DNA from: Candidatus Moraniibacteriota bacterium
Lineage (GTDB): Bacteria; Patescibacteriota; Minisyncoccia; Moranbacterales; UBA1568
NCBI GenBank assembly: GCA_016699425.1
Contig: CP064975.1
Location: forward strand, 2,979-66,978
Direction of reading: 5' to 3'
DNA length: 64,000 bases
Of the stretch, positions 12,621-36,741 are shown one piece after another. Each line of letters begins with the position of its first letter. The stretch's first letter is position 1. The notes beneath the pieces are model-generated. The model was given only the letters and a program-made list of their open reading frames with translations, was not told the origin of the DNA and ran no database searches. The position numbers and the translations under genes are program-made.

Positions 12621-12665
12621 GACACTACGCCTCCCGCCGCACCGACGGGATTGGGGATACAATAG
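12621..12665 (+). repeat. Cassette-boundary element copy a (intergenic; tiny ORF MSDTTPPAAPTGLGIQ*)
   Basis: GACACTACGCCTCCCGCCGCACCGACGGGATTGGGGATACAATAG. Confidence 0.8.
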
Positions 12666-12712
12666 GAGAAAATGGTATACTGACAAAAGAAGAGAGGATC
12701 TTTCTTGAATTT

Positions 12713-15676
12713 TTGAGTTTGTTTTCTCGTATGTCAGAAACGCGCGCTAGAGTCATCCAATATGTTTTTATTCTTACTGCACTCCTTGTTCTGGCGAGCG
12801 TCGGTTGGTGGTACTACCACCAGTCCCAAGCCTCGACCAAGCTGCAAAACTCGCAGGCAGGGAGTTTGACCAATGGCCTCCAGGGCTATTGGCCGCTCGA
12901 TGGTGACACAGTCGTCTGGACAGATACAACGACCGAGCTCAAGGACAAGTCTGGCAATAATCGGCACATGAATTCTTCTGGACTCGGTATCGACGAGTCA
13001 GTACCGGGCCGGATCGGGCAAGGGCTACTCTTCACGCCTGGCGGTGGTGCCTATGGCGTTACCACGAATTCTTTCAATGCCTATACGACGGGGACGATAT
13101 CGATGTGGTTCAAATACAGTGGTACGCCGGGGCAGGTGGGTACCTCTGGGACGCTTTGGGACCACGAGGACTGCGGCAACAACAAAGGCCAATTCCAGAT
13201 CGCCATGGACACAGATAACAGTGAGCTGTATTTGTGGATGACACAGTCCGGTGCCGGGTGTACCGCGGCCATTGGTGCATCCGTCAATCTGCCCAATCCG
13301 ACGGCCTGGCATCACTTTGTCTTTACGGATGATACGGGTGGGCACAAGCTCTATATCGACGGTATCTTGCAAACTCTGACGTATGCGAGTGGCAATGCAT
13401 CTATAGACTTTTTCCTCGACAATGTTGTCGGTTCGAGCAATACGCCTCAGATCGGTGAAGTAAATAATGAGAACTTCAGTGGCACACTCGACGAGGTTCG
13501 TATCTACAATCGGGCGCTGTCGGCGGACGAAGCCTGGTCGCTGTACCGCCTCGGCCAAGTGACCATCAACACCCGGCCCGGTGATGATGTGTTGGAAGAG
13601 GGTCTGGCCGGGTACTGGAAGGTGGATGAAGGAACAGGGACAAGCACGACCGCCGATGCAACGGGCAATGGGAACAGCGCGACTATGACAAACATGGAGT
13701 CGGGCGACTGGGTGGCGGGACAAGTTGGTCCGTATGCGCTTGATTTTGATGGCACGAACGAGTACCTGAGTGTGACAGATCCGGCGAGTGGAGTCCTCGA
13801 CTTCGCTGATAGTACGAACTTTGCGCTCACGGGCTGGTTCAATCGGGACACCTTTGCAGCTGATCACACCGTGATCGCGAAGAAAAACGATCAGACGACC
13901 AATCAGGGATATGTCGTTTGGGTAGACAACAATGGCAGCACCGATACGCTTATCTTCGAAGCATCCGATGGAACTGATACCTATCAGGTGCCCTCCAAGA
14001 CACAGTTCAATGCGACTGGCTGGCATCACTTCGCGGTCAACTGGAATGATACGGCAGGCGTCAGTCTCTACATCGATGGGCACCTCGACACAGGTACGCC
14101 GACGGGTACGTTTGCCAATGTGAACGTGCTCTCCAACGCCCTCGCCTTCCGAGTGGGCGCCGAATCGGATGCCGGCGTTCCCTTTGATGGGAAGCTGGAT
14201 GAGATCAGAGTCTACCGGCGGGCGCTTTCGGCGGGTGAAGTATCGCTCCTGTATCTCGAGACGCACCCCGATGATCCGAATACGAACTTGGTCGGGTACT
14301 GGACGTTCGATGGGATGGATGTGAGCGGTACGACCGCCATCGACCGCGGGCGCGGCGGGAATACCGGGACGCTCACGGGTGGTCCGACCGTCACCCCGGG
14401 TCGCATCGGCCAGGCGCTCAAGTTCGATGGGGTGGATGACTATGTGAATGCCGGAGTGTCAGCCGTCCTCGATGACATCGCCACGCTCTCCACCTGCGCC
14501 TGGATCAATCCGCGGAGCGCTGGTGAGATCTATAGCGGTTCTGACCGCTTCGGTGGCATCGTGACCGAGGGCATCCCTGGAGGATGGTTTTTCATGACGA
14601 CCAATGTTTACGGATCAGTCAGGTTACTCTTCTATGTCTACTTTTCCGGAACGGACGGGGCATGGTATCCAACTTCCGACACGATCCCACTGAACACATG
14701 GACGCATGTCTGCTTCACCTACAACAATACGTCCGCGAGCAACGACCCCGTGCTCTATATCAACGGAGCGTCGGTGTCTTTGACGGAGGACAGTACGCCG
14801 ACCGGCACGGTGGATTCCAATGCTGGGAGCGAGCTCCATATCGGCACCAATGACGTGACGGATCAGGTCTTCGACGGACTGATCGATGATGTTCGCGTCT
14901 ATGATACGGCCCTGACACAGACGCAGGTCACCGAGCTGTATCGCTCGACCGGGGGCAAGGCGATCACCGCGTCCTCGGGCAATGATACGCTGCGGAGCGG
15001 TCTGGTGGGTCTGTGGAGTATGGACGGGCAGGATGTAAATTGGGCTGACACGACGACCGAGGTGAAGGATGATACAGCCGGTGCCAATCACGGCGACGCG
15101 ACCAATATGTCGGCCGCCTCCGTCGCTCCCGGCCGTGTCGGTCAGGCCATCGACCTCGACGGCACCGACGACTACATTAGCGTCACCGACACCGCCACCC
15201 TCGACTTCACCGACACCGCCGACCTCACCCTCTCGGGCTGGTTCAACCGCGACACTGCCACGACTGACGATACTCTCATCGCCAAAAGCAACGGCATCAC
15301 CGCTGGTGACACCGGCTATCTCGTCTACCTCGACGATGCCACCGATCAGCTCATCTTTGAAGTTTCAGATGGGACCGATGAATACTCCCTGACATCGACC
15401 ACCACCTTTACCACGACTGGCTGGCATCACTACACCATCACCTGGGACCAGGACTCCGCTGCCAACTCTGAAATCTATATCGATGGGACTGCCAACAGTG
15501 CCACCGATACCGGGACCATCGGGAATATCGGTGACCTCTCCAATGCCCTCGCTTTCCGCGTGGGTGCGGAGAGTGATAATGGTAACCCCTCCGATGGGAA
15601 GATTGATGACGTCCGAGTGTATAGCCGGGTGCTCTCCGCCAGCGAAGTGACCCAGCTGTACAACATGGGGCGGTAG
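12713..15676 (+). CDS. Membrane-anchored protein with 4 tandem LamG / concanavalin A-like lectin domains
   Basis: N-terminal signal anchor. The DEVRIYNRALSxxE / DDVRVYxxALS motif repeats four times. The protein ends ...QLYNMGR. Confidence 0.75.
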   Translation: MSLFSRMSETRARVIQYVFILTALLVLASVGWWYYHQSQASTKLQNSQAGSLTNGLQGYWPLDGDTVVWTDTTTELKDKSGNNRHMNSSGLGIDESVPGRIGQGLLFTPGGGAYGVTTNSFNAYTTGTISMWFKYSGTPGQVGTSGTLWDHEDCGNNKGQFQIAMDTDNSELYLWMTQSGAGCTAAIGASVNLPNPTAWHHFVFTDDTGGHKLYIDGILQTLTYASGNASIDFFLDNVVGSSNTPQIGEVNNENFSGTLDEVRIYNRALSADEAWSLYRLGQVTINTRPGDDVLEEGLAGYWKVDEGTGTSTTADATGNGNSATMTNMESGDWVAGQVGPYALDFDGTNEYLSVTDPASGVLDFADSTNFALTGWFNRDTFAADHTVIAKKNDQTTNQGYVVWVDNNGSTDTLIFEASDGTDTYQVPSKTQFNATGWHHFAVNWNDTAGVSLYIDGHLDTGTPTGTFANVNVLSNALAFRVGAESDAGVPFDGKLDEIRVYRRALSAGEVSLLYLETHPDDPNTNLVGYWTFDGMDVSGTTAIDRGRGGNTGTLTGGPTVTPGRIGQALKFDGVDDYVNAGVSAVLDDIATLSTCAWINPRSAGEIYSGSDRFGGIVTEGIPGGWFFMTTNVYGSVRLLFYVYFSGTDGAWYPTSDTIPLNTWTHVCFTYNNTSASNDPVLYINGASVSLTEDSTPTGTVDSNAGSELHIGTNDVTDQVFDGLIDDVRVYDTALTQTQVTELYRSTGGKAITASSGNDTLRSGLVGLWSMDGQDVNWADTTTEVKDDTAGANHGDATNMSAASVAPGRVGQAIDLDGTDDYISVTDTATLDFTDTADLTLSGWFNRDTATTDDTLIAKSNGITAGDTGYLVYLDDATDQLIFEVSDGTDEYSLTSTTTFTTTGWHHYTITWDQDSAANSEIYIDGTANSATDTGTIGNIGDLSNALAFRVGAESDNGNPSDGKIDDVRVYSRVLSASEVTQLYNMGR

Positions 15677-15701
15677 GAAAACCTCAATACTATTTTTCAG
15701 T

Positions 15702-15746
15702 GACACCACCCCTCCCGCCGCTCCGACGGGCTTGGGGGTAGAATAG
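15702..15746 (+). repeat. Cassette-boundary element copy b (intergenic, after the LamG gene)
   Basis: GACACCACCCCTCCCGCCGCTCCGACGGGCTTGGGGGTAGAATAG. Confidence 0.8.
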
Positions 15747-15904
15747 GGAGGGGATGTCATCGCGAGCTCAACTTATTCCAGCGGACGAAGAATCGAGAAA
15801 GTTGATTCTAACCGGTAAAATGCCTGTAGTTTGCTTTATGTAAATTTTGTGTATAATGAATACGTAAATAGAGTATAATGTATGTATCAGAAATACATAA
15901 AATC

Positions 15905-17041
15905 ATGATTAAGCGGTTTTATAGCCCGTTAGAGCCATTTTTGAAGCCAAACAAGGTTCTGGTTCTCTATGGACCACGGCGGGTGGGGAAAACAACTTTA
16001 CTGAAGGAACTCCTGGATACGACGTCACTGAAATATCGCTTTGATTCTGGGGAAAATATCCGCGTCCAGGAAATATTGGGGTCGAATGATTTTCAGGCGA
16101 TCAAGGAATACTTGGCCGGATACGAACTGCTCGCGATTGACGAAGCGCAGCAGATTCCCAATATCGGTCGCGGGCTGAAAATCATCGTTGATAGCATTCC
16201 CGGTATCAAAGTCATCGTGACGGGATCATCGAGTTTTGACTTGTTCAATCAGGTCGGCGAGCCGCTCGTGGGCAGAAAGACGACACTGACGCTCTATCCG
16301 TTTGCGCAGTGTGAACTGGCGGAGAGTTTCAATACGTCTGATCTCAAGGAGCGACTGGAGGAATTTCTGCTCTTCGGTTCCTACCCAGATGTACTGGTAG
16401 CGTACACACGGGAGCAGAAGATCACGTTTCTCAACGACATCGTTGACGCGTATCTTCTGAAGGACGTCTTGGCACTCGATGGCGTGAAGAAATCGAGGAC
16501 GCTCGTCGATCTCGTCAAACTGCTCGCGCTGCAGGTGGGAAATGAGGTTTCTTTGAATGAGCTCTCCAATACTCTGGATACCAATATCCGGACGATTGAG
16601 AAATATCTAGACATTCTGGAAAAAGGCTTTGTGATCGTGTCGCTCGGCGCATTGAAGCGGAATCTCCGCAATGAGGTGCGGAGCAAGCGGAAGTACTATT
16701 TCTACGATACCGGCGTCCGGAACGCGCTTCTGTCCCAATTCAATCGTCTGTCGGAACGGAATGACGTCGGAGCACTGTGGGAGAACTTCCTCTTCATTGA
16801 ACGCTTGAAGAAAAGCACGTATCAGCAGCACTATGCAAACCGATATTATTGGCGGACCTACGAGCAGCAGGAGATTGACTATATCGAGGAGTATGGAGGA
16901 GCGCTCCACGCGTATGAGTTCAAGTGGAACAAAGAGAAAGCGCCGCTCCCAAAAAAGTTTTTGGACGCGTACGGACAGTCTTCTTTCGATGTGGTGACAA
17001 AAGAGAATTATTGGGATTTTTTGGTTCGGCTGAGTTCGTGA
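15905..17041 (+). CDS. AAA+ ATPase with C-terminal DUF4143-like domain (ATP-binding protein)
   Basis: Walker A GPRRVGKTT. The gene and its upstream region are markedly AT-richer than the flanks (TGTGTATAATG extended -10 at ~15850). It lies between two boundary-element copies. Confidence 0.7.
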   Translation: MIKRFYSPLEPFLKPNKVLVLYGPRRVGKTTLLKELLDTTSLKYRFDSGENIRVQEILGSNDFQAIKEYLAGYELLAIDEAQQIPNIGRGLKIIVDSIPGIKVIVTGSSSFDLFNQVGEPLVGRKTTLTLYPFAQCELAESFNTSDLKERLEEFLLFGSYPDVLVAYTREQKITFLNDIVDAYLLKDVLALDGVKKSRTLVDLVKLLALQVGNEVSLNELSNTLDTNIRTIEKYLDILEKGFVIVSLGALKRNLRNEVRSKRKYYFYDTGVRNALLSQFNRLSERNDVGALWENFLFIERLKKSTYQQHYANRYYWRTYEQQEIDYIEEYGGALHAYEFKWNKEKAPLPKKFLDAYGQSSFDVVTKENYWDFLVRLSS

Positions 17042-17109: not shown

Positions 17110-17255
17110 TCGCATGCAGTAAAGTTCGCCACCCGCCGCGCCGACGGGGCTTGCCGTCGAGTAATCGAAGGCGGGCAGGGTTATTTTTTTTGGGGGGGTA
17201 CAGTGAGTGTCGCAGTGTTATTTGGAGGTTCGACCTCCAAGTGGATTGGAGGCTG
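17110..17255 (+). repeat. Second repeat family, copy 1: degenerate boundary element (..PPAAPTGLAVE*) plus GCCGTCGAGTAATCGAAGGCGGGCAGGG...CAGTGTTATTTGGAGGTTCGACCTCCAA palindrome
   Basis: Shares about 80 nt, including the TTGGAGGTCGAACCTCCAA palindrome, with 34745-34860. Confidence 0.6.
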
Positions 17256-17330
17256 GTTGGATCCATAATCGTATCATTTTGATAAGAATTCCAGCTTGAT
17301 TGCCAGTCTATTTTTGGCTACAATAGTGGC

Positions 17331-17940
17331 ATGTCTACATATCCGGTCTCAGCGATAGTTTTTCGGCAGAGCCTTTTTTGGGATGCAGATCCCAAAAGAC
17401 TCGATACCGAGAAAAATGCCCGTTATATCATCGAGCGGGTGCTTGATTTCGGGAACGCTGAAGAGATACGCTGGCTCTTCCAGCGGTATCTCTCGGAACA
17501 GGGAAAGTGGGTGACGACGCTTTGGGAAAAGGGGACATTGTACGGACTCTTTCTGGGAGCCAAGGTGAGTTTCATTGCGTATCCTTCTTTTCGTCCCTTG
17601 GACGATCGCGTGCGGTATCAGTCTATACACCTTCTCTCGCCGAGGGATATTGCCGCGATGAAGATCGTGGCCGTGAGCCAACGTGGGAAGAAACGTGATT
17701 TCTTTGACCTGTACTGGCTGGCGCATCATGGTATCCCTCTGAAAGAGGCGATTCTTGGGGCTTTGGAGTAGTATAGGAATCAGCAACAGAGCCTGCCACA
17801 TTTCCTGAAGAGTCTCGTGTATTTCGCGGAGGCTGAAGACGATCCGATGCCTGAGATTTCTTTTCAGACTGATTGGCAAATGGTCAAAGAGTATTTCGAA
17901 ACGAACGTGCCTACCCTGACGAAGGAGTTGCTCCGGCTGG
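17331..17940 (+). CDS. Nucleotidyltransferase AbiEii/DUF1814-like C-terminal-domain protein, interrupted by an in-frame TAG at 17770-17772
   Basis: KIVAVSQRGKKRDFFDLYWL and, after the TAG, LVYFAEAEDDPMP, which are characteristic C-terminal motifs of that family. One frame runs through the stop. Confidence 0.4.
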
Positions 17941-18032: not shown

Positions 18033-18077
18033 GACATCACCCCGCCGGCGGCGCCGACAGCGCTCGGGGTACAATAG
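18033..18077 (+). repeat. Cassette-boundary element copy c (intergenic remnant, directly upstream of the family A1 start)
   Basis: GACATCACCCCGCCGGCGGCGCCGACAGCGCTCGGGGTACAATAG, then AAAGGAAACAC ATG. Confidence 0.8.
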
Positions 18078-18089
18078 AAAGGAAACACA

Positions 18090-18925
18090 TGCACAAAACT
18101 CTTCTCCCAACACTCAAGGTCGTTTTCTTCCTCGGCCTCTTTCTCCTCTCGAGTCACTCGGTCTCAGCCGCCGGCCGGGTGTTTTCTGATGGGTTCGAGG
18201 ACGGCACTACAACTCAGTGGACAGATGGTACGACTGCTGGTGCAGAGGGGAAGTGTAACATCGTCACGTCAGCTCTCGACGGCGGTACGGGACCGAAATC
18301 CGGCACCAAGATGGCCCGGTGTAACTGGGATGGAACGCAAGGAGCGCTCTACGGACATTCGCATCAAGAGATGGATACGAGCTGGTCCATGGGGAATGAG
18401 GCGCTCATACGTTTTCATGTCAGAGTCGATAGCGACGTAGATGTAAAGGCGGGGTCAAAGTTATTCCGGTGGAACGGCTTCAACAGTTTTGGCGCGATCC
18501 AGTTCGAGTATGGTAACGGGGCCACACTGTACACGAGATCACACTCAGAAGATGGAACACAGCTTGGACCGACGAACTACGGGGGCGGAAACGCTTTCCG
18601 TAACGGTCAATGGCACCAGATCGAGCTGTATATCAAGAAGGGCAGCGGGGGCATCATCAGGGTATGGGTCGATGATGCATTGGTGTCTGAAGGACTAAAT
18701 ATCAACACGAACGATTCAACATGGAATCAGTTTCACATGATGTCGAATTGGTCGCTGAATGACGGCTGGGAGCATGATGCGAACAACCACATGTACTGGG
18801 ATGAGTTTGAGGTGTATTCGGACACCGGCACGAGCGGCACGGGTTCGCTGTCGGCTGGGACGGCAGCGCAGGGGTCAAGCGACACCACCGCTCCCGCCGC
18901 GCCGACCGGGCTTGGGGTACAATAG
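18090..18925 (+). CDS. Secreted ConA-like/beta-jellyroll protein, family A copy 1 (signal peptide ...SVSAAGRVFSDGFEDG), ending DTTAPAAPTGLGVQ
   Basis: Paralogs lie at 27613, 28499 and 30552. Conserved MARCNWDG, IRFxxRVDSDVD, WHQIE(L/I)Y and NWSL..HDANNHxYWD blocks. The last 45 nt are boundary element copy d (18881-18925). Confidence 0.7.
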
Positions 18926-18929
18926 AGAC

Positions 18930-20120
18930 ATGACGAACACGAACCAAAAACTTCTCACCCTTACCACATGCCTTACCTTAAGCTTTTTTAGCCTGGCTGG
19001 TTCTGCGTTGGCGGCACCGTCGATCAGTGGCACGTCCGGGACGTGGTCGCATGGTGGATCGGTGACGGTTAATGGTTCGGCTTTTGGGAGTAAGTCACCT
19101 GCGGCTCCGCTCGTGTGGGATCACGGGCAGTATGCCAATTTCACAGCAGCAGGATACGTCGGAGCTTGGCCGAATACTGGGCCAGGAGCGTCGAACATTG
19201 TGTATTCAACTGGCGTAAGTGGGGTCGTGATGCCACATGCGCGCACCACGACGTACGCAACAGGGTCACACCTTGGCGTGAACGACGAGACAGGCGGCAA
19301 CAACGTCCAACTCTGGACAACGTTCAACAAATCCAACGGTCAGCGGGTGTATGTGTCGTGGTACTCACGGCTAGACCCTGCGTGGCAGGGTGGGCTCGGC
19401 TCGCCATCAGACGGAAACTTTAAGACCTTTGGGTATTCCGGCGGCGGATACGGCCTGATCGTTTCGGGGGGAACAAATTGGTACCACGCGGGGTTCCTGA
19501 ACCCAGCGAGTTCCGATGCCCAGTATATAATCAACGACGATAACGGATCGACGCTTGATAACCCGGACGCAAACGGCGACAACTCATTTCATGAAAACAT
19601 GGTATCTCCCGGTAAGGGGTCGGCTAGTGACGCGTCGAAGTGGGTTAAAAATGAGGTCGAGATGCGGATTTACTCTACCAGCGGCCTGGGCGGCGGTTAC
19701 GTAAAGGCATGGGATAACGGCGTCCTAGGAATCAACTATGTGGGCAAGACGGACAACTGGTCCGGTACGTCGCGTAGCATCGGCGTAGGCGGATACGCTC
19801 GCGCGCAGGGCGCCACGACTCAGCGTCGCTACTTTGCCGATGTCTATATCGATACCAGCGCAGCTCGGGTGCTGCTGTGTCAGGGGTCTACTCTTGCGTC
19901 GCGCGGGGTGTGTGAGCCGCAGCCGCCGACGGCGTGGGGCGCATCGAGTGTAGCGGTTACGGTAAATGCCGGGAGATTCACGGACGGCTCGACAGCATAC
20001 TTGTACGTTTGTGACGATATTGGTTTATGCAATGCCAACGGCACAGCCATCACGATAGCCGGAAGTGGCGGGGGAGACACCACCCCACCCGCGGCTCCGA
20101 CGGGGCTGGGGGTACAATAA
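18930..20120 (+). CDS. Secreted protein, family B copy 1 (signal peptide then APSISGTSGTWSHGGSVTVNGSAFG), ending DTTPPAAPTGLGVQ
   Basis: Paralog at 29349-30544. The start lies 5 nt after the A1 stop. Boundary element copy e lies at 20076-20120. Confidence 0.7.
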   Translation: MTNTNQKLLTLTTCLTLSFFSLAGSALAAPSISGTSGTWSHGGSVTVNGSAFGSKSPAAPLVWDHGQYANFTAAGYVGAWPNTGPGASNIVYSTGVSGVVMPHARTTTYATGSHLGVNDETGGNNVQLWTTFNKSNGQRVYVSWYSRLDPAWQGGLGSPSDGNFKTFGYSGGGYGLIVSGGTNWYHAGFLNPASSDAQYIINDDNGSTLDNPDANGDNSFHENMVSPGKGSASDASKWVKNEVEMRIYSTSGLGGGYVKAWDNGVLGINYVGKTDNWSGTSRSIGVGGYARAQGATTQRRYFADVYIDTSAARVLLCQGSTLASRGVCEPQPPTAWGASSVAVTVNAGRFTDGSTAYLYVCDDIGLCNANGTAITIAGSGGGDTTPPAAPTGLGVQ

Positions 20121-20126
20121 AACCAT

Positions 20127-20917
20127 ATGCATAAAACACAGCGGCTTGCATCTCTCTCGGTCTTTGGCATCATCCTCGGCCTCTTTCTCCTCTGGAGTCA
20201 CTCGGTCTCAGCCGCCGGCCGGGGGGTTTCGGATGGGTTCGAGGGCGGCACTACAACTCTTGGGCAGCTGGTACGACTACTGGTTCTGACGGCAAGTGTG
20301 ATGTCGTCTCGAGTGGCCCTCGACGGCGGATACGGCAGACGGTGGATCCAAAATGGCGCGATGTAATTGGGACGGGACTCAAGGAACTCTACGGCCACCG
20401 CAGCCAGAGATGATCAAGCGCGCCTGGTCGAAGTCGCGCGCTTCATCCGGTTCTGGGCGCTCGACAGCGATGTGGATTAAAGCAGGGCAAAGCTTTTCCG
20501 GCCTGGGGCCGTTAGTTTTTCAGGATTCCAGTTTGAATACGGGAGGGGCTACCCTTCTTTCCACTATTTACAAGAGCGATTCAACCCAGCTTGGCACAAC
20601 GAATTGGGGCGGTCCGAGGTGAGGGACGGTCATGGCACCTATCGAAATCTACTTGTTGGAATCAACACGGTCAGAATAAGGGCATTGCACGAATATGGGT
20701 AGACGAGGCTTGTGTTGGGACAAGGGGCAGCTGGGCCGGTTTTCACATGATATCAATTGGTCACTGAATCAGGCTGGGATCACGACGCGAACAATCACAC
20801 GTACTGGGATGATTTTGAGTTTCCGACACGGGACGGCACTGGTTCGATGTCGGCAGGGACGATCCAGGGCAGCGACACCACCCCGCCAGCGCGCCGACAG
20901 GGTTGGTGGTACAATAA
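20127..20917 (+). pseudogene. Degraded chimeric family-A cassette (A1-like N-terminus, A4-like C-terminus, multiple indels), ending with element copy f (20874-20917)
   Basis: Aligns at DNA level to 30552-31415 with several deletions and frame breaks. Confidence 0.6.
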
Positions 20918-20935
20918 CGCAAAGAGATAATACCT

Positions 20936-27612: not shown

Positions 27613-28493
27613 ATGAGACGATCGTTTCTCATCACCCTCTACTCTCTCCCTCTTTTCGTGGGCCTTTTCTTCGCGAGTGACGCCTCCGCCGCCGGGCGGG
27701 TGTTCTATGACGGCTGGGAGAGTGGGAATGCGAATGCGTGGGTGTCTGGAGGTACGGGGATATATGGCAAATGTGATGTCGTCACGTCGGCGCTGGACGG
27801 CGGGGTTGGCCCACTGTCCGGCACGAAGATGGCTCGATGTAACTGGGACGGCACGGCAGGACCCTTCGGGCACCAGAATCAGGCAATGGCAATTTCAGGG
27901 TGGTCAAAGAGCCGCGAGATGCTCATTCGGTTTTGGACGCGTGTCGATAGTGACGTGGACGTTGCAAAGGGAGCAAAGCTTTTTCGCGGGCCGGGGGGCA
28001 CGAGTTATTCAGGCTGGCAGTTTGAAGAAGGTGCGGTGGCAGCGCTTTTCTCGGCGCTCTTCAAATCAAATGCTCAGTCGATTGGGAGCGCCAATTATGG
28101 TTGCTCTGCGCAACCAGGGTATAACTACGACCCGCCGATCCGCAACGGCAACTGGCATCAGATCGAAATATATCTCAAGGAATCGACTTCTGGCAGTACC
28201 AACGGGGAGGCTCGGATCTGGGTAGACGATAAACTTTGTTGGGAGGCATTGAATCAGAATACGGATGATCCGCTCGGACCATCCTATTGGGCTGATTTCC
28301 ACGTGATGTCGAATTGGTCGCTGACCGAAGTCGACTGGGCGCACGATGCCAACAATCACATTTATTGGGACGACTTCGAGGTGTACTCCGACACCGGCAC
28401 CGGTGGCACTGGCACCCTGTCAGCTGGCACGATGACACAGGGGAGTACCGACACCACCCGCCGGCGGCTCCGACGGGACTGGGAGTACAATAG
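27613..28493 (+). CDS. Secreted family A copy 2 (frameshift inside the terminal element, 28447-28493 = copy g)
   Basis: MRRSFLITLYSLPLFVGLFFASDASAAGRVFYDGWESG... The element has lost one C (ACCACCCGCCGGCGGCT), so the ORF runs on. Confidence 0.65.
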
Positions 28494-28498
28494 AAAAT

Positions 28499-29341
28499 AT
28501 GAACAGGATATTTCTCGCACTTTTCGGTATCACCCTCGCTCTCGGATTCTTTTTCCTCTCTCCACATTCAGCCTTAGCCGCGGGGCGGGTGCTGACAGAC
28601 GGTTTTGAGTCCGGCAACAATAATCTCTGGTCGCAGAATCCGTTAGGCAAGAACAAATGCCCTGTCGTCATCCAATCGACGTCGGTCGGAAGTGTCGCAC
28701 CGCATACCGGTAGCTACGCGGCCCAGTGTAATTGGACGAACCTCGACTGGCAGGATCCCAACTTTTATAACGCCAATTTTTTTGAATCCAGTAACTACAC
28801 CTCAGATGTCTTTATTCGTTTTTGGGTCCGCTACGACAATGATGTGGACTTAAACACTGGTTCTAAACTACTACGTTTTGGTGATCTTGGTGGTTCGTTT
28901 TGTGACTTCCAATTGGAACAGGGAGTGAGTGCAGGAGTTATTTGTCAGATATATGCCGTCCGCGGAGGAAATGCCAATTGGCTCAGTCCCAACTGCTACT
29001 CAGCGGCGACAAACATCAGGCAGTGGAACAAATTTGAGATCTATATAAAAGAGGGCGTTAGTGGTCAGGCAAAAGTGTGGCTCAATGATAATTTATTCTG
29101 TGACCGAAGCGGCAACACGACCCAAGACGAGTCATGGGCGCGTGTGAACGCCGTTTCAAATTGGTCCAATGAAGTCGGTTGGGAACACGACATGAATAAT
29201 CATACGTACTTCGACGATTGGGAAATCTGGACCGACAATGCCAATGAAGCACACACGGGCACGATGGCAGGCGGTGACATCGCCGCCAACGGCACCGACA
29301 CCACCCCACCCGCCGCGCCGACGGGACTGGGGGTACAATAA
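28499..29341 (+). CDS. Secreted family A copy 3, ending DTTPPAAPTGLGVQ (element copy h, 29297-29341)
   Basis: Signal peptide ...SALAAGRVLTDGFESG. The start lies 5 nt after the previous stop. Confidence 0.7.
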   Translation: MNRIFLALFGITLALGFFFLSPHSALAAGRVLTDGFESGNNNLWSQNPLGKNKCPVVIQSTSVGSVAPHTGSYAAQCNWTNLDWQDPNFYNANFFESSNYTSDVFIRFWVRYDNDVDLNTGSKLLRFGDLGGSFCDFQLEQGVSAGVICQIYAVRGGNANWLSPNCYSAATNIRQWNKFEIYIKEGVSGQAKVWLNDNLFCDRSGNTTQDESWARVNAVSNWSNEVGWEHDMNNHTYFDDWEIWTDNANEAHTGTMAGGDIAANGTDTTPPAAPTGLGVQ

Positions 29342-29348
29342 ACTCATC

Positions 29349-30544
29349 ATGACCACTGCAAAATACAAATCAATCTTTCTGGCTGTTTTTTTACCCCTCC
29401 TCTTCTTCAGCTTGGCAAAAATTGCACTCGCTGCTCCCTCTATCAGTGGCACCAGTGGAACGTGGTCGCACGGCGGCAGCGTGACGGTCAACGGGTCGGC
29501 CTTTGGGACCAAGACCACGGCCGCGCCGCTTGTTTGGGATGATGCGACAGGGGGGACGCTGCTGGACAAGTGGGATGGCAAATACCCAAATTGCACAACC
29601 GACCATCGGTACGACCCAAACTACACGACCAGCATTCGGGGGATCTCGCTGCCGCATGCCCGTGCGACGAAATACATAGCTGGCGCGCATGCGAGTACAG
29701 GATCGGCGAATTCAGAATGCGGTTATGACGTAGGGTTTTGGAAGTTTCGGCCTACGATGCCTGGCTATCCGTCGTATACCTACTTTAGCTACTATTTTCG
29801 GGTCGATGACAACTTCCAGTTCGGCCTGAACGACGGGGACAACAACTTCAAAATGGCGTCCGTCGATCAGGGCCATGTCGCGGCGTTGGGTAGTCCGTAC
29901 ACCATGTCGGTCAACATCGGCGTGCCCTATTCACCCCCTGGATCCCCGCAGTACGTCATTTATTCGACCAACGAACGATTCGACATCCCTGATCTGAACG
30001 GGCACAGCGGATTCTGGAATTTCAACGGGAATGATTGGTGGTCAGGGGTATGGACGAAAATAGAATACGAATACAAACATTCCACGCCCGGCACGGACGG
30101 GTGGCTAAAAGTTTGGGAAGACGGCCGCGTGCTGGTCGATTACAGGGGGCGTTTCGGCCTGCCGCCGCCTGAGAATGACCTGACGCAAACGCATCTTATT
30201 GGGGGTTACTCGCGTAATTACCAGATCAACACCACAACTGGAACTAACTACCGGTATTACGCCGATGTGTACTACGACACGTCCGCGGCGCGTGTCCTTT
30301 TGTGCCAGAACAACACATACTCATCGAGAGGAATTTGCGAGAACCAGCGCGCGACCTCTTGGGCTAGCGGCTCGATTGCGACGACAGTCAATGCCGGCCG
30401 GTTCGCTAACGCGAGTACGGCTTATCTGTATGTGTGCGACGACGCCGGGGCATGCAACGCCAACGGAACGGCGATCGTCATTGCAGCTGGCGGCGGCGGG
30501 GACACCACTCCTCCTTCCGCGCCGACCGGACTGGGGTACAATAG
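29349..30544 (+). CDS. Secreted family B copy 2, ending DTTPPSAPTGLG (element copy i, 30501-30544). Its stop is out of frame because of a 1-nt loss in a G run, so the ORF track fuses it with the next gene.
   Basis: AAPSISGTSGTWSHGGSVTVNGSAFGTK... is the same N-terminus as 18930. Confidence 0.7.
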
Positions 30545-30551
30545 AGACATC

Positions 30552-31415
30552 ATGAAAAACTCATTTCAGAAATCATTTCTTATTCTTTTCACGCTCGCTT
30601 TAGGTTTGTCACTAGACTCAAGCAGCGCGTTCGCCGCCGGCCGGGTGTTTTCTGATGGCTTCGAGGACGGTACGACGAATGCTTGGGCACCCGGCGAGAG
30701 TAGTGGTTATTACGCCAAGTGTGATGTCGTCTCGAGTGCCCTCGATGGCGTGATAGGCCCGCACGGTGGCTCGAACATGGCACGCTGTAATTGGGACGGG
30801 ACTCAAGGAACTTATGGCCACCGCAGCCAGGAGATGATCAAGAGCGCTTGGTCGAAGTCGCGCGAAAGCTTCATCCGGTTCTGGGTGCGCATCGACAGTG
30901 ATGTGGATTACAAACAGGGAGCTAAGCTGTTTCGCGGTCCTGGGGCCGTTAGTTTTTCAGGATTCCAGTTTGAATACGGGACAGGGGCTACCCTTCTTTC
31001 CACTATTTACAAGAGCGATTCAACCCAGATTGGCACAACGAATTGGGGCTGTGGTCCTGAGGTGAGGGACGGTGCATGGCACTCTATCGAAATCTACTTG
31101 TTGGAATCAACACCTAGTCAGAATAATGGCATTGCACGAATATGGGTAGACGACGGCTTGTGTTGGGAAGCGACAAGTGTCAATACCGACGACCCGCTGG
31201 GGGCCGGGTACTGGGCCGATTTTCATATGATATCCAATTGGTCACTGAATCCAGGTTGGGATCACGACGCGAATAATCACACGTACTGGGATGATTTTGA
31301 GATTTTCTCTGACACGGGTACCGGCATGACTGGTTCGATGTCGGCAGGGACGATCACTCAGGGGGGCAGTGATACCACCCCGCCAGCTGCGCCGACAGGG
31401 TTGGTGGTACAATAA
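30552..31415 (+). CDS. Secreted family A copy 4, ending DTTPPAAPTGLVVQ (element copy j, 31371-31415)
   Basis: MKNSFQKSFLILFTLALGLSLDSSSAFAAGRVFSDGFEDG... Confidence 0.7.
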   Translation: MKNSFQKSFLILFTLALGLSLDSSSAFAAGRVFSDGFEDGTTNAWAPGESSGYYAKCDVVSSALDGVIGPHGGSNMARCNWDGTQGTYGHRSQEMIKSAWSKSRESFIRFWVRIDSDVDYKQGAKLFRGPGAVSFSGFQFEYGTGATLLSTIYKSDSTQIGTTNWGCGPEVRDGAWHSIEIYLLESTPSQNNGIARIWVDDGLCWEATSVNTDDPLGAGYWADFHMISNWSLNPGWDHDANNHTYWDDFEIFSDTGTGMTGSMSAGTITQGGSDTTPPAAPTGLVVQ

Positions 31416-31433
31416 CGCAAAGAGATAATACCT

Positions 31434-32280
31434 ATGCATAAATCGATGAGAGTTCGACACCTCGCTTGTTTGGTGGTAGTTCTCGGTGTGGGCATGGCTT
31501 TCGTTCCGTCTACTCAGGCGGTTGATTACCTCGGATCGACCGGAGTAGGGGAAACCTGGGAGACTCCGACCACCATCCCGACGAACTGGCCCTATCAGCA
31601 GTCCGCTTCGAACAGCTGTTCGCAGGCGAGTTGGAACGGCTGGGCAGGACGTGGCCTGGGGCGATACGACGACCGAAGTGAAGGACACCTCCGGCAACGG
31701 GGACCACGGCGACGCGACGAATATGTCGACTGCTTCCGCCACTCCGGGTCGTATCGGGCAGGCGCTGAACTTCGACGGAGTGAATGACTATATTGCATTG
31801 GGGTCACCTGCTGTACTGGACGATATCGTCAATCTGACAACATGCGCGTGGGTCAACCCGGACGGTACGGCTGATGGGAGTATCGTCACCAAGGATGATT
31901 CTACAACCGGCTGGAACGTGTACTACACTGAGGCGGATGGTCGCGCACGCTTCGTACGGGGGTGGTCGGGCGGTGACGCTTTTTGGCAGACGGGCAGTGG
32001 GGTAATTCCAGATAGTACATGGACGCATATTTGTCTCTCATACAACGATAGTTCAACCACCAATGATCCAGCGTTCTACATCAATGGCGCCCTGGTCTCG
32101 TCCACGGAAACGGTAGCTCCGTCCGGGACGCCCAATAGCGATGCGACCTTCGTAGGGGCGATTGGGTCATATGGCAATGGCTTGAATGATTTTTTCGACG
32201 GCAAGATCGACGAAGTCCGGGTGTACAACCGGGTGATCACGTCCGCCGAAGTGACTCAGCTGTATAATCTGGGGCGGTAG
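31434..32280 (+). CDS. Short secreted LamG-domain cassette, copy 2 (one frameshift at ~31655: ggcag versus ggccag)
   Basis: Signal peptide, then WPYQQSASNSCSQASWNGWAG, then a LamG domain like domain 3 of the 12713 protein. It ends LYNLGR. Confidence 0.65.
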
Positions 32281-32313
32281 CCTCTTATAAAAATGAATGA
32301 GCAGTACTGCAGC

Positions 32314-32358
32314 GACACCACAGCGCCTGCTGTGCCGAGGGGGCTCGGAGTACAGTGA
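32314..32358 (+). repeat. Cassette-boundary element copy k (intergenic, diverged: TTAPAVPRGLGVQ*)
   Basis: GACACCACAGCGCCTGCTGTGCCGAGGGGGCTCGGAGTACAGTGA. Confidence 0.7.
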
Positions 32359-32369: not shown

Positions 32370-33294
32370 ATGACTGGAAATTCCTTCGGAAGGAGACGAG
32401 CTTCAGTGGCAGTCGTGGTCATCAGTCTATTCGTTGCACCATCGGCGGCGGAAGCTACAGTCTACATTAACCAAAATGCTGAATCCCTCACGTGTGGAGC
32501 GAATATTCCGGAGTCAGTTTTTTGGCCGGGGGGCGATGGGAATCCAACGGCGGCCACGGGGCATGTGAATTGTGGAGGTGCTCCTCAAGGCAATAAGTAT
32601 TTTGAGTGGACCACGGTTGCCGGGCAGGGGGACGGCGGGAAATTCAACTCCCGTGGGACCCACGAGACCGACCCCGAATTTGCTCGGGACGACGATTTAC
32701 CTCGGCATGTATTTTAATTTCACTCGGATCAACGGGGTGGATATATGGTACAAGCCTGGAAATGATACCGGCGATAAAGGAACTGAATTATTTGGAAATG
32801 GTATTCGCTGGGATATCGGTCAAGGGTGGGGCACGTGGGGTGGTACGCAAGGATCAGTCGGACACTATACGATATGGGAAGCGAATCCGTCGTTTCACCT
32901 CAACCCTTCAATCGAATACTATGATGCGATTCCCAATAATCGAGGGGGGTATGGAGTAGGGCATTCCGTGCAGCTCGCGTATGACACCTGGCACTCACTC
33001 GTCCGAGTGATCAGGTTTTCGAATACCAATACGGGGTACGTTGCATTGTATGCTGATGGTGTCCTTATTTCAGAATATGACAATATAATCACTGCAGCGA
33101 ACAATACTCCAGACATCGACATCATCGGACTCGGTGGAACGATGTGTCAGCCAGCGTATGATTGCCCGCCCCATCACCGAAGATATGATGCATTCTTACT
33201 CACCGACAGCTGGCAAGATATCGTAAACGGTGGTTATCTCGGTGGGAGTGACACCACCCCTCCTGCGGCGCCGACAGCGCTCGGGGTGCAGTGA
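32370..33294 (+). CDS. Secreted protein, family C (one frameshift ~32700), ending DTTPPAAPTALGVQ (element copy l, 33250-33294)
   Basis: Signal peptide AVVVISLFVAPSAAEA. The C-terminal body resembles the fragment at 34804-35157. Confidence 0.6.
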
Positions 33295-33329: not shown

Positions 33330-33908
33330 ATGAGTACAGAAAAAATGGACGGTAAAAACGAGCGATTCACGTACTTGGCTCGCTCCGGCGAGACGGTGTT
33401 CCATGCGCGTGACCTGGCTAACTTGTGGGGAATCACCAGCGCGAATACGCTCTATACGACGCTCAAACGATATGCTCAAACCGGGGTACTGTTTCGTATC
33501 TACAAGGGTTTCTACTCTCTCCACCCACCATCAGAGATCAATCCGTATCTCCTGGGTGTTAAAGCACTGCATCAATACGCCTACGTCAGTACCGAAACAA
33601 TCCTGAGCCGCGAGGGCATCATCAATCAGCCGATGCGACACATCACTCTGGTGAGCGCACAATCGAAACATCTGACCATCGGGCAACGACAGTATCTTTC
33701 CAGAAGATTGCGGGCCGCTTTCTTGTTTAATAATGCCGGTGTCGTTGAGAAGGACGGAGTGTACTTTGCAAGTGTCGAGCGGGCGGTTGCCGATATGCTC
33801 TATTTCAACCCACGTTTTCATTTCGATGCAGAGGCACTTATTGACTGGAAAAAGGTCAGGCGAGTGCAACAGCAAGTGGGGTATTTGCCAATAACGAGAA
33901 ATATATGA
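33330..33908 (+). CDS. AbiEi-family antitoxin / transcriptional regulator (type IV TA)
   Basis: 192 aa N-terminal wHTH protein. It overlaps the downstream AbiEii gene by 4 nt (ATGA). Confidence 0.65.
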   Translation: MSTEKMDGKNERFTYLARSGETVFHARDLANLWGITSANTLYTTLKRYAQTGVLFRIYKGFYSLHPPSEINPYLLGVKALHQYAYVSTETILSREGIINQPMRHITLVSAQSKHLTIGQRQYLSRRLRAAFLFNNAGVVEKDGVYFASVERAVADMLYFNPRFHFDAEALIDWKKVRRVQQQVGYLPITRNI

Positions 33909-34654
33909 TATTACCCCACCCCGAAGATGCCATTCATAAGGCCTGGCTGTACCGGCTCCTCTCCGCATTGGTCGACGATATGATGCTCGCTTCCGTCTTG
34001 CGTTTCAAGGGCGGGACATGTGCCGCTATGCTCGGCTATCTGGACCGATTTTCCGTTGATCTGGATTTCGATCTTGTCGTAGCGACCGCAGAAGCACTTC
34101 CATCTATCCGAGAGAAGATGGAAGCGGTATTTACTGGCCTCGGATTGGAGATCAAGGATGCGAGCAAAAATACCGCACAATATTTCTTGCGGTACCCTGT
34201 CGTGGGAAACAAGAGAAACTCGCTGAAGGTGGACGTCACCTTTCCGCCGGTATCCGCGAACAAATACCAGACGGTGCGTTTGCCAGAAATTGACCGACTG
34301 GTCGCGTGTCAGAGCGTCGAGACGATGTTTGCGAACAAGCTCGTGGCCCTGATTGACCGTTACGAAAAGAACGAGTCGTTGGCCGGAAGGGACGTGTATG
34401 ACATCCATCATTTCTTTTTGCGCGGTTTTCGGTACACCGATGAGGTGATTCGAGAGAGGCGCGGGACGGATTTGGAGACATTTTTTCGACAGCTTTTTAA
34501 TTTTGTGGAAAAGCATGTCACCGAGAAAGTGCTTACGGAAGATCTGAATTCGCTTCTCCCATATGCGGAGTTTTCTAAACTGCGCAAAGTATTAAAACAA
34601 GAGACGCTGATGTTTTTGCATGATGAGCGGACGCGGGTGTGCGGGAAGAAATAG
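33905..34654 (+). CDS. Nucleotidyltransferase AbiEii/AbiGii toxin family protein (DUF1814)
   Basis: RFKGGTCAAMLGY...DRFSVDLDFD NTase motif and C-terminal domain. Confidence 0.8.
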   Translation: MILPHPEDAIHKAWLYRLLSALVDDMMLASVLRFKGGTCAAMLGYLDRFSVDLDFDLVVATAEALPSIREKMEAVFTGLGLEIKDASKNTAQYFLRYPVVGNKRNSLKVDVTFPPVSANKYQTVRLPEIDRLVACQSVETMFANKLVALIDRYEKNESLAGRDVYDIHHFFLRGFRYTDEVIRERRGTDLETFFRQLFNFVEKHVTEKVLTEDLNSLLPYAEFSKLRKVLKQETLMFLHDERTRVCGKK

Positions 34655-34744: not shown

Positions 34745-34860
34745 ACACCACCCCTTCCGACACCACTCCTCCCACCTCACCGACGAGTCTCGCCGTCGAG
34801 TAATTGGAGGCGGTCGGGGGGTATGATTGGCAGTGTTATTTGGAGGTCGAACCTCCAAAT
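34745..34860 (+). repeat. Second repeat family, copy 2 (..DTTPPTSPTSLAVE* + GCCGTCGAGTAATTGGAGGCGGTCGGGG...CAGTGTTATTTGGAGGTCGAACCTCCAA)
   Basis: Matches 17110-17255. Confidence 0.6.
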
Positions 34861-35157
34861 GAAAATGTGCAGTTCAAGTTCCAGTATAATTCAGGCAGCG
34901 GATCACCCGGGACTGGGAACACGGCAATCTGGATCGACGATACCCAGATTTATACGGCGACGGATGACTGGGTCGATGGGAACAAGGGCTTTAACTATAT
35001 CCTCCTCTCGGACTTCTTCTCGGATCGGGATGGATCGAGCTTCACCGCTCAGATCGATTTTGATGACTTGCGTGTGACTGACACTCGCCCTGCGATGCCG
35101 AGCGGCGGTGGCGACACCACCCCGCCAGCTGCGCCGACGGGGCTCGCCAGAGAGTAA
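34804..35157 (+). pseudogene. C-terminal remnant of a family C-like cassette, ending DTTPPAAPTGLARE (element copy m, 35113-35157)
   Basis: No credible N-terminus. The frame continues through the upstream TAA of repeat copy 2. Confidence 0.5.
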
Positions 35158-35187
35158 CCCTCGGAGGCCGACTGGGTTGGGGGTACA

Positions 35188-36741
35188 ATGAAAACTATGC
35201 GTTTGAAGAGTTCGGGTCTATTGTTTCAGCTGCCACATAAGTCTGTCATATGCGGAGTGTTTCTCTTCGCCTTGGTCGGACTGTTTGCATTCTCAGGAAT
35301 GATCGCGCAGGCCGCGACATACTATGTCGGCAAATCCGGTTCAAACAGCAACACGTGCGGGACGGCGACGAGTAGCACGGCAGCTAACCGGAAATTGACG
35401 GTATCGGCCGGACTGGGCTGCTTGTCTGCCGGCGATACCCTTACGATTGGCGATGGCACGTACAGCGAAACGCTGCAATCGATTCCCAATGGCACGTCCG
35501 GCAACTACATTGTCGTTCGCGCCGAGAATAATCACAGCGTTGTGATGACCGGGTTGTCGATGATCAACACCGATGCCTATATCAATGTCATTGGCATCAA
35601 TTTTCGCAGCGGCAACAACGGTAAAGAAATCCTCGGCAATCATCTGAAGTTCCAGAAGTGCGAATTCCGTGGCGGGGCGTCGAGCGGTAACCAAGTCAAT
35701 TTGCTCATTGGCTCAAACGACTTCAACGACACTGCCGACATTCTGCTTGAAGACATCGTGGTGCACGGAGTGGCAAACGGGCGCTACAACGTCCTCGTCT
35801 ACAACGCTGATCGCGTGGTGCTGCGACGTGCCGTGATCCGCCACGACGGCGGTTGGACCGGGCCGAGCAACCCGTCAAGCGGAATCAATTTCTACGTCAG
35901 CAGCGACTCATGGTGCCTCAACTGCGTCGTGCTGGACTCGCTCGCCTCGCTCGACTGGTCAGGCGCGTTCTACATGGTCAAAAACTCGTCGGTGGCGCAT
36001 GCCAACAATGGTAACGGCATCGTCGGATCAATCATCCTCAATAATCCCGACCTGGGCCTGCGGATGGATGCATCGGCCTCGGGGAATGACATCAGCAACG
36101 TGACGTTGACGGACAATGTGCTGTGGGACAACGCCAACGGTGGCATTGCAATGTGTTGTGCCGGCAGTGTCACATCGACCTCGACGCGGCTCACCATTGG
36201 ACGCAGTACCGTGACGTTGTCCGGTGATTGGAAGGGCGGTATCGGCGATTTTTCAGCTGGGTCGAACACAGCAATCAGCTCGATCTTCCACGATATAGAT
36301 GCGGATGTCAGCGGCATGACTGCCACTTACTGCGACACGTTTTCCAACCTATCGACCAACTGTTCGACAACTGGCCGACAGACCTACGATCCACTGAGTA
36401 ATGGCTTGCTCTACCTGCCGCGCATCGAAGCAGCGTCGAACCTCAAGACAGCGGGCAGTGGTGGCGGGCAGCTCGGGGCGCAGATCGTCAACAAGATTGG
36501 TACTGACGGCACGCTGCAGGGCGAGAGCGGCTGGAATACGGACACGGGAAATGTGCTGTGGCCGTGGCCCGACGAATCGTGGGTTAAACAGGTGATGTGC
36601 ACAGATGTGAGCATCACGCGCGGATTTTGTGGCAGTGCGTCGCTCACTCAGTACATCATGAACTACCTCGGTAACGGTAACCCGTATAGTGGCACCGACA
36701 CTACTCCTCCCGCTGCGCCGACGGGGTTGGGAGTGAATTGA
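35188..36741 (+). CDS. Secreted right-handed parallel beta-helix (pectate-lyase-fold) protein, ending DTTPPAAPTGLGVN (element copy n, 36697-36741)
   Basis: Signal anchor, then TYYVGKSGSNSNTCGT and repeated G/N-rich beta-helix rungs. The ATG overlaps the TACAATG of a partial element copy at 35165-35190. Confidence 0.7.
   Translation: MKTMRLKSSGLLFQLPHKSVICGVFLFALVGLFAFSGMIAQAATYYVGKSGSNSNTCGTATSSTAANRKLTVSAGLGCLSAGDTLTIGDGTYSETLQSIPNGTSGNYIVVRAENNHSVVMTGLSMINTDAYINVIGINFRSGNNGKEILGNHLKFQKCEFRGGASSGNQVNLLIGSNDFNDTADILLEDIVVHGVANGRYNVLVYNADRVVLRRAVIRHDGGWTGPSNPSSGINFYVSSDSWCLNCVVLDSLASLDWSGAFYMVKNSSVAHANNGNGIVGSIILNNPDLGLRMDASASGNDISNVTLTDNVLWDNANGGIAMCCAGSVTSTSTRLTIGRSTVTLSGDWKGGIGDFSAGSNTAISSIFHDIDADVSGMTATYCDTFSNLSTNCSTTGRQTYDPLSNGLLYLPRIEAASNLKTAGSGGGQLGAQIVNKIGTDGTLQGESGWNTDTGNVLWPWPDESWVKQVMCTDVSITRGFCGSASLTQYIMNYLGNGNPYSGTDTTPPAAPTGLGVN

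Follow-up and report, generated by a model that had tools for sequence, protein, structure and literature searches.

Why do genes for different secreted proteins, set one behind the other in a single bacterial genome, end in the same 45 nucleotides? The question is raised by a 64,000-nucleotide (nt) stretch of a Candidatus Moraniibacteriota genome (assembly GCA_016699425.1, contig CP064975.1, positions 2,979 to 66,978), the whole of which is referred to here as the window, and in which a repeated element marks an array of cassettes between positions 12621 and 36741. An earlier reading made from the letters alone (the sequence-only reading) had listed 14 copies of the element and two degenerate ones, and all 16 sites indeed carried it, on the plus strand only. 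We found that these 45 nt are the final 14 codons of the cassette genes together with the stop, and the copies read in frame gave DTTPPAAPTGLGVQ followed by the stop, or a near variant of it. The actual consensus is GACACCACCCCNCCNGCNGCGCCGACGGGGCTGGGGGTACAATAG; the one written down earlier produced no matches because it was a few bases short, and the copy that had been placed at 28447 really starts at 28450. When the 3' half of the element, CCGACNGGNYTNGGRGTACAAT, was searched with up to three mismatches, 13 sites were recovered in the window, all of them on the plus strand, compared with 0.02 expected from shuffled sequences.

The peptide encoded by these codons, hereafter the tail, is under selection as a protein sequence. 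In a comparison of 33 genuine tails, the minor-allele fraction was 0.405 at the third codon position versus 0.076 and 0.039 at the first and second positions, a contrast that is inflated because the tails were gathered partly by peptide pattern. The sequence-only reading had taken third-position variation as a sign of selection on the peptide, and this claim held up: variation was highest at the third position, and the tail was kept beyond this genome and also in a gene that ends its array. Unrelated proteins were alike only in their last 14 to 20 residues, and amino acid changes were commoner in relic copies of the element than in genuine tails. Among 286 open reading frames (ORFs) of at least 200 amino acids from the window and the comparison loci, 44 ended in P..P..[LVIF].[VI], all of them members of the secreted set, and none of the approximately 240 others did.

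The origin of the tail was recognizable. A tail profile covering the last 30 residues was run against 1.84 billion representative proteins (E <= 1e-3) and gave 69 matches, which fell into two classes. In the first class, approximately 45 small or medium-sized proteins with a beta-helix, polysaccharide lyase (PL)-like or glycoside hydrolase (GH)-like character, or without annotation, matched at their exact C terminus. The second class consisted of giant multidomain proteins with many internal DTTPPAAPTGLTATAVSSSQINLDW copies, each being the linker and first strand of a fibronectin type III (Fn3) domain; in protein P0046, DTTAPAAPTGLGVT leads directly into a Pfam fn3 match that starts at profile position 2. 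Judged by sequence, DTTPPAAPTGLGVQ is homologous to the Thr/Pro linker and strand A that open Fn3 domains, and it ends three residues after the Leu. A view of the tail as unrelated to anything known is therefore not supported. The tail has the P-x-x-P-x-x-L-x-V motif of strand A and lacks the complete seven-strand sandwich (about 84 positions), and the cassette proteins have no fn3 Pfam match; the sole fn3 match in the window, in a giant LamG protein, is complete (profile positions 2 to 79). In P0002, a vWA protein anchored in the membrane, the motif DTTPPAAPTGLR is repeated four times in tandem, with helical spacers of approximately 17 residues between the copies and the last copy at the C terminus; this suggests that the motif acts as an independent linear motif.

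All of the tail-bearing genes encode a signal-peptide-like N terminus. Family A (about 280 amino acids) matches the Pfam family Polysacc_lyase (PF14099), is modeled by AlphaFold2 as a jelly roll with a predicted local distance difference test (pLDDT) score of 85, and has the PL20 glucuronan lyase as its nearest solved structure in Foldseek. Family B (about 396 amino acids) is built of an Ig-like, a PL-like, and a second Ig-like domain, and one of its homologs is named 'heparin lyase I family' by NCBI. The members A1 and B1 match IPJ68_00095 and IPJ68_00100, respectively, at 100% identity; both of these belong to a 1.22-Mb contig of a Candidatus Moraniibacteriota metagenome-assembled genome (MAG). 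These families had been described as structurally unrelated, which is correct for the beta-helix protein of the array, with its different fold, but not for A, B, and the PL14-like protein, all of which have ConA-like polysaccharide lyase folds. In the AlphaFold2 models of families A and B, the last 17 to 19 residues are coil with pLDDT values of about 44 to 55; thus, the tail is predicted to be a free, flexible appendage that lies outside either of the two family folds.

Related genomes carried the tail as well, as the sequence-only reading had proposed to check. A scan of one genome per species with back-translated PPAAPTGLGVQ identified six loci in two other MAGs, where the tail was present with different codons; at all six, the stop codon followed the motif directly and the genes stood in similar head-to-tail arrays. 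The exact form of the tail therefore has a narrow distribution, and no match was found in the metagenome and viral contigs scanned with the same back-translated motif. In loci reached through homologs, tail-bearing A and B genes occupied a conserved position between SLT and rpsF among housekeeping genes, and the last gene of this group also had the tail with no gene behind it. More distant A and B homologs (30 to 45% identity) ended in a Pro-rich stretch plus x-L-x-V-x, in lineage-specific variants such as ..APAAPTNLRVVQ, ..PPNPPQNLQVQ, and ..SPEPPMDVTVE. Variant forms were common to the two families, with ..LLPGPTNYRRVPQ in A accompanied by ..LLPGPANYRRVPQ in B and ..RLPAPAVLERRPR in A accompanied by ..RLPAPATLERRPAH in B, and in locus L014, from a 63% GC genome, two different secreted proteins ended in ..GLQVIEVK and ..TLQVIGVQ with different codons. 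This sharing of variants and the L014 tails form the pattern expected of a common partner, not of DNA homogenization alone. The distant homologs sit in Wzy-type exopolysaccharide loci of Gram-negative bacteria and also in structural modules of phages. Overall, these results firmly establish a peptide-selected, Fn3-derived C-terminal tail that is common to different secreted glycan-active proteins of Moraniibacteriota and has looser relatives in exopolysaccharide loci and phages.

Some further observations concern these loci. The exopolysaccharide loci with family A homologs (L014 to L019) also encode an Asn synthase, a CapK-like ligase, a DUF3473 deacetylase, and a FemAB-like acetyltransferase, and we take them to resemble exosortase/PEP-CTERM-type loci. 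In the phage loci L020 to L023 (also L024 to L029), A and B homologs with signal peptides were found, some of them between the portal and major capsid genes, and the phage-encoded tails are Arg rich (..NYRRVPQ and ..LERRPAH). The CAYLPD01 MAG, labeled 'uncultured Bdellovibrionales' (L001, L003, L005, and L006), has the same tail-bearing families and arrays as the Moraniibacteriota MAGs, and its taxonomic label may be wrong.

The codons of the tail appear to serve the following gene as well. We defined a junction tail as one with an ATG opening a long ORF within 20 nt downstream. At Val13, GTA or ATA was used in 14 of 16 junction tails versus 5 of 22 other tails (Fisher p = 2e-4), and a similar picture was obtained with the window excluded (9 of 11 versus 3 of 17, p = 0.0015); in the housekeeping genes of the window, GTA makes up only 8% of the Val codons, while CAA makes up 33% of the Gln codons and GGG 22% of the Gly codons. 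GTA or ATA at this position gives TACAAT or TACAGT spanning Val, Gln, and the stop. In tails without a close downstream gene, the last residue varied freely among N, E, and Q. The sequence-only reading had noticed TACAAT shortly before the next ATG, which was correct, but the spacing of 8 to 15 nt that it gave was not, since the end of the hexamer mostly lies 6 to 9 nt from the ATG, with exceptions at 13 nt (copies 18033 and 32314) and 20 nt (20874 and 31371). Genes of other kinds share this geometry: TAnnnT is located 6 to 9 nt before 3.6% of all ATGs, compared with 5 of 27 noncassette genes in the window and 12 of 41 genes in the related loci from Moraniibacteriota, among them ftsK and SLT (TGnTATAAT). 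Shine-Dalgarno sequences are nearly absent from the genes of the window and the related loci. In locus L011, a noncoding relic tail 5' of the first cassette has turned into GGGGTATAAT, 7 nt before the ATG. No terminator-like sites were present between the cassettes, and one, a hairpin with a T run (36851 to 36874, plus strand), was found past the last cassette. Leaderless promoters have been mapped in Mycobacterium and Deinococcus, where a TAnnnT -10 box lies approximately 7 nt before the start codon. The earlier suggestion of a -10-like 3' end for short-leader or leaderless mRNAs is therefore upheld by the rare GTA, used mostly where a gene follows, and by the geometry shared with housekeeping genes. 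The comparative codon evidence gives good support to the view that the last codons of the tail probably double as the -10 box from which the next gene is transcribed into a leaderless mRNA, and the layout of the genes suggests that leaderless mRNAs may be normal in this Moraniibacteriota lineage; we found no paper on leaderless transcription as the norm in Patescibacteria. Separately, we observed (TGn)TAnnnT 6 to 8 nt before the ATG at many first genes, in the window as well as in L007, L011, and L013.

On balance, we lean slightly toward an explanation in which the element encodes an Fn3-derived common C-terminal recognition tag with an embedded leaderless promoter. At the DNA level, the Gly-Val-Gln-stop codons GGG GTA CAA TAR would make up an extended -10 box rich in G (GGGGGTACAAT), whose G at -14 agrees with boxes of this type; RNA polymerase would start the leaderless or near-leaderless mRNA of the next cassette from this hexamer, and relic copies would persist because they still act as promoters. 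At the protein level, the tail would use beta-strand addition to offer a short Leu-x-Val-x strand to one shared partner, and the strand would be carried by a Pro/Thr stalk that may be O-glycosylated. Candidates for this partner are a surface receptor, a scaffold, and a processing enzyme, and the contact would hold the enzymes at the cell surface or bring them together there. Such docking by strand addition, with or without a glycosylated stalk, is something we infer only, by analogy. LamG proteins as a dedicated receptor are not supported, as LamG neighbors are absent from the arrays of other MAGs. A bolder version, which we would call unlikely, is a natural split-domain tag. In this version, strand A of an Fn3 domain, without the rest of the domain and borne by a glycosylated stalk, would plug into a surface acceptor, and in Moraniibacteriota its codons would also act as a leaderless promoter. 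If true, the split-domain tag would be a minimal 14-residue docking system for glycan-degrading enzymes in bacteria of the candidate phyla radiation (CPR), some exopolysaccharide-producing Gram-negative bacteria, and the phages of the latter.

Several points weigh against the explanation as a whole. In addition to the inflated codon-position contrast mentioned above, the copies compared are paralogs and orthologs, so the events are not independent, and five or six tails with GTG AAT TGA, for example, may share an origin. The element has no -35 hexamer, and the close stop-to-ATG spacing also suits translational reinitiation. The docking by strand addition is argued by analogy only. No adjacent gene was consistently linked to the tail-bearing genes, and the arrays in other MAGs are without LamG neighbors. 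Finally, the frame changes seen in the cassettes may mean that part of the array is decaying, or they may be long-read assembly errors.

The spacing at the junctions is the starting point for a translational alternative, in which ribosomes ending at the tail stop restart at an ATG 4 to 9 nt further on and the G-run serves as a weak upstream Shine-Dalgarno sequence. The very short gaps, the missing Shine-Dalgarno sequences, and the lack of terminators between cassettes agree with such coupling, and GGGGGU could presumably pair with the anti-Shine-Dalgarno sequence via one G-U pair. However, coupling gives no reason to expect the rare GTA in place of GTG at junctions, the 11 to 14 nt between the end of the G-run and the ATG are a long distance for a Shine-Dalgarno sequence, and the layout of TAnnnT 6 to 8 nt before ATG also occurs at first genes behind long intergenic regions. 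Coupling instead of a promoter therefore seems doubtful, but both mechanisms, promoter and reinitiation, may operate together. A different DNA-level view treats the tail as a vestigial Fn3 stub without peptide function, homogenized by gene conversion and kept only as promoter DNA of the next gene. This view can point to element copies that are 83 to 93% identical versus 65 to 77% for gene bodies, to the DNA-level constraint at the 3' end, to relic copies that survive without an ORF, and to the Pro8 codon, which is CCG in 32 of 33 tails compared with 45% genome-wide and is accounted for by neither the peptide nor the -10 model. Yet the variation is concentrated at third codon positions, the last tails in arrays keep residues 1 to 13 with nothing downstream, relics gain amino acid changes that genuine tails lack, similar peptides are written with different codons in the 63% GC genome, and A and B homologs at 30 to 40% identity conserve looser tails, which makes a functionless stub distinctly improbable. 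The sequence-only reading had also offered a cassette recombination and expression site; in such a view, an integron-like element, or one of another site-specific kind, would capture and shuffle cassettes. The layout is cassette-like, toxin-antitoxin, AAA ATPase, and IS200 genes lie between the cassettes, and relic copies flank inserted genes both in the window and in L001. We nevertheless consider this proposal extremely improbable, as a scan of 40 ORFs of the 64-kb window found no recombinase or integrase, the element is coding sequence read in frame, a C-rich/G-rich hairpin is not maintained (65.3% of cells paired versus 64.6% in shuffles), and an 87%-identical duplication (20211 to 21268 and 30633 to 31766) passes straight through an element instead of having its borders there. 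An RNA or DNA hairpin formed by the C-rich Pro codons and the G-rich Gly codons was considered as well; one copy folds with z = -2, but covariation was absent when 39 copies were compared, and the hairpin was rejected.

Among the alternatives that give the peptide itself a role, the tail could be an O-glycosylation acceptor and protease-resistant C-terminal cap that is modified by PMT/GT39-type enzymes during Sec export. Three conserved threonines (Thr2, Thr3, and Thr9) lie within a disordered stretch rich in Pro and Ala, a PMT_2 family gene is located at 2897 to 4738, and linkers of this kind are glycosylated in secreted enzymes of actinobacteria and clostridia. Glycosylation leaves unexplained, however, the conserved Leu-x-Val-x, the stop three residues after the Leu, and the variants shared by A and B that have no Thr clusters (..NYRRVPQ), so that it seems quite unlikely as the explanation of the tail, although glycosylation and docking can coexist. 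The tail could also be a processing signal for a sortase-like transpeptidase or protease that cuts between T and G of AAPTG and links the enzyme to the wall or to a protein. AAPTG resembles the class E sortase motif LAXTG, the tail proteins have signal peptides, the bacterium is assumed to be single membraned, and the tail is exposed and flexible. But past the motif there are only four residues (LGVQ) and neither a hydrophobic segment nor a basic tail; AAPTG is found in Moraniibacteriota tails, but distant tails read TN, QN, MD, or KD instead of T-G; and the same sequence occurs as an ordinary internal Fn3 linker. No sortase gene was found among the tested ORFs of the window, and processing of this type appears very improbable.

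The region from 18 to 37 kb consists of tandemly duplicated genes for Sec-exported, polysaccharide lyase-like proteins, with selfish genes inserted among them, and the array as a whole is flanked by a P-type ATPase gene and an ABC-F gene; all array features given below are on the plus strand. Self-comparison of the window showed a four-gene unit, A-B-A-small LamG, that is present twice (18089 to 21800 and 28499 to 32280); between the units, gene bodies are 65 to 87% identical and the element is 83 to 93% identical. The first unit comprises A1 (18089 to 18925, signal peptide plus PL20-like jelly roll with PF14099, tail at 18881 to 18925), B1 (18930 to 20120, signal peptide with Ig-like, PL-like, and Ig-like domains, tail at 20076 to 20120), A2 (20127 to 20917, with several frame changes and a tail copy at 20874 to 20917 that has a 1-nt deletion), and the small secreted LamG gene 1 (20936 to 21800, no tail). 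An IS200-like Y1 transposase gene (22052 to 22504) and the gene for a giant FG-GAP/Big_7/fn3/LamG surface protein without a tail (22820 to 27544) come next, followed by a PL14-like secreted gene (27613 to 28493) whose tail copy (28450 to 28493) is off frame through a 1-nt deletion in a C run. The second unit contains A3 (28499 to 29341, tail at 29297 to 29341), B2 (29349 to 30544, tail at 30501 to 30544), A4 (30552 to 31415, tail at 31371 to 31415, ..GLVVQ-stop, with TGGTACAAT as the extended -10), and the small secreted LamG gene 2 (31434 to 32280). Both small LamG genes need one frame change, in the same N-terminal region, and further cassettes have frame changes too, some of them in homopolymers. 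The array LamG set is completed by a second giant protein (12731 to 15676), which is membrane anchored, has four LamG domains, and does not itself end in a tail. A family A-like gene 5, also with one frame change needed, is located at 32370 to 33294 (tail at 33250 to 33294), and the last cassette encodes a secreted right-handed beta-helix protein, chondroitinase-B-like (35188 to 36741), whose tail at 36697 to 36741 reads ..GLGVN-stop (GTG AAT TGA), without TACAAT and without a gene close downstream.

Three copies of the element (20874, 28450, and 30501) have a frame-breaking 1-nt deletion, two of them within C or G homopolymers; in B2 the deletion lies in the G run of the tail and lets the ORF continue into A4, so that the two genes merge into a single ORF of 688 amino acids. 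Three intergenic remnants had been reported earlier, and remnants do exist, but there are four copies without a long upstream ORF. These are DTTPPAAPTGLGIQ-stop at 12621 to 12665, where no long ORF ends and which is located 3' of the P-type ATPase gene; ..GLGVE-stop at 15702 to 15746, 25 nt past the LamG stop and in a different frame; DITPPAAPTALGVQ-stop at 18033 to 18077, with TACAAT 13 nt 5' of the A1 start; and DTTAPAVPRGLGVQ-stop at 32314 to 32358, with three amino acid changes. The last of these (region 32281 to 32358) shares its frame with the small LamG gene 2, from which a single TAG separates it. As a general mechanism, readthrough of LamG stop codons or frameshifting into the relic tails was considered and rejected, since 32314 is in frame and 15702 is not. 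LamG proteins with such a tail exist elsewhere, e.g., P0129, which ends in ..AAPPRPPTNLHIVP, and together with the in-frame relic at 32314 they raise the possibility of a recent tail loss in the LamG genes of the window.

Variant tail sites at 17116, 34759, and 35113 end in ..LAVE-stop or ..LARE-stop, and each is followed by a detached, noncoding G-run and a -10-like hexamer. At the first of them, the degenerate relic (..PTGLAVE-stop, 17127 to 17213) precedes a G-run with TACAGT at 17194 to 17213, and at the second, DTTPPTSPTSLAVE-stop (34759 to 34832) precedes a G-run with TATGAT at 34817 to 34832. The copy listed earlier at 35113 is present as a variant tail (..GLARE-stop) of a gene fragment, but the 3' half of the element is a separate noncoding copy, CCGACTGGGTTGGGGGTACAAT, at 35168 to 35189 (the whole feature spanning 35113 to 35189), 7 nt before the ATG at 35197. 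A 29-nt repeat, GCAGTGTTATTTGGAGGT(N4)CCTCCAA, was found at 17212 to 17240 and 34830 to 34858 (plus strand); it forms a 12-bp hairpin in which GGAGG pairs with CCTCC, and both copies lie about 7 nt 3' of the noncoding G-run and -10 box, where they closely follow a variant relic tail. The repeat may represent a small RNA or an element of a 5' untranslated region; it was not found in 17 comparison loci, and Rfam gave no match inside the array. Outside the array, a transfer-messenger RNA gene at 48998 to 49442 (minus strand) was detected by Rfam with 101 bits and missed by ARAGORN.

The inserted genes include a nonsecreted AAA ATPase (AAA_14 plus DUF4143, 15878 to 17041). The AAA ATPase genes that adjoin relic tails in the window and in L001 are dissimilar at the DNA level and therefore do not point to a common mobile unit; a tRNA gene that could mark an integration site was not found. 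A DUF6922/AbiEii fragment gene (17331 to 17771) has a full promoter, TTGATT-17-TACAAT-6-ATG, at 17296 to 17333. Two genes at 33330 to 34654 are read as an AbiEi/AbiEii toxin-antitoxin module; the second (33905 to 34654) has a Pfam AbiEii match and the first (33330 to 33908) has none, being a putative AbiEi by its position.

CPR bacteria live attached to other microbes, and we know of little on how they display the enzymes used on host surfaces. A 14-residue tag without a membrane anchor points to a route of surface assembly or recognition that current models of sorting signals miss, and it covaries between two protein families across bacteria and phages. The tail could be used as a bait peptide for its partner and its variant forms in phylogenetic profiling, and it is a simple annotation marker of a set of secreted enzymes now labeled 'hypothetical protein'. 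The junction, for its part, is a clear case of dual coding, in which the synonymous choice of GTA versus GTG tracks the presence of a following gene.

Compared with known systems, the array resembles integron attC arrays in its short, one-directional cassettes that each end in a repeated element, with toxin-antitoxin genes among them; unlike attC, the element is translated and has no conserved inverted repeat, and no integrase was present among the tested window ORFs. As in the C-terminal sorting signals LPXTG, PEP-CTERM, GlyGly-CTERM, and the C-terminal domain (CTD) of the type IX secretion system (T9SS), a short module is common to unrelated secreted proteins of one genome, but the tail has no transmembrane helix, basic end, or 80-residue domain. 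The sequence-only reading saw no fit to a classical sorting signal, and we agree: the tail matched no Pfam or NCBIfam model (for NCBIfam, five tail proteins at E <= 0.1), it lacks the combination of motif, transmembrane helix, and Arg-rich end that marks PEP-CTERM, GlyGly-CTERM, exosortase, and rhombosortase substrates, and its 14 residues, disordered in the models, differ from the T9SS CTD, a beta-sandwich of approximately 80 residues. Literature searches gave nothing relevant on DTTPP and nothing on the motif under sortase or surface proteins of Patescibacteria. By analogy only, the tail recalls the dockerin-cohesin system, where glycan-active enzymes share one C-terminal tag for a common scaffold; however, it has 14 residues versus about 70, and the two calcium-binding repeats of about 22 residues (PF00404) are missing, with no Pfam match. 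Donor-strand and split-domain tags (chaperone-usher and type V pili, TasA fibers, and SpyTag/SpyCatcher) offer another likeness, since an orphan strand of an Ig-like fold on a flexible stalk could complete or extend a sheet in a second protein, but no polymer is implied for the tail system. With bacterial Fn3 domains (PF00041), the tail has the sequence DTTPPAAPTGL-x-V in common; unlike them, it covers only about 9 of 84 positions and stands at the extreme C terminus of otherwise complete enzymes. Finally, the junctions resemble leaderless-mRNA promoters in having a -10-like hexamer 6 to 9 nt before the ATG and no Shine-Dalgarno sequence, alike in front of unrelated genes, and they differ in that the putative -10 box, without a -35, lies inside the last codons and the stop of the upstream gene and is repeated at each junction.

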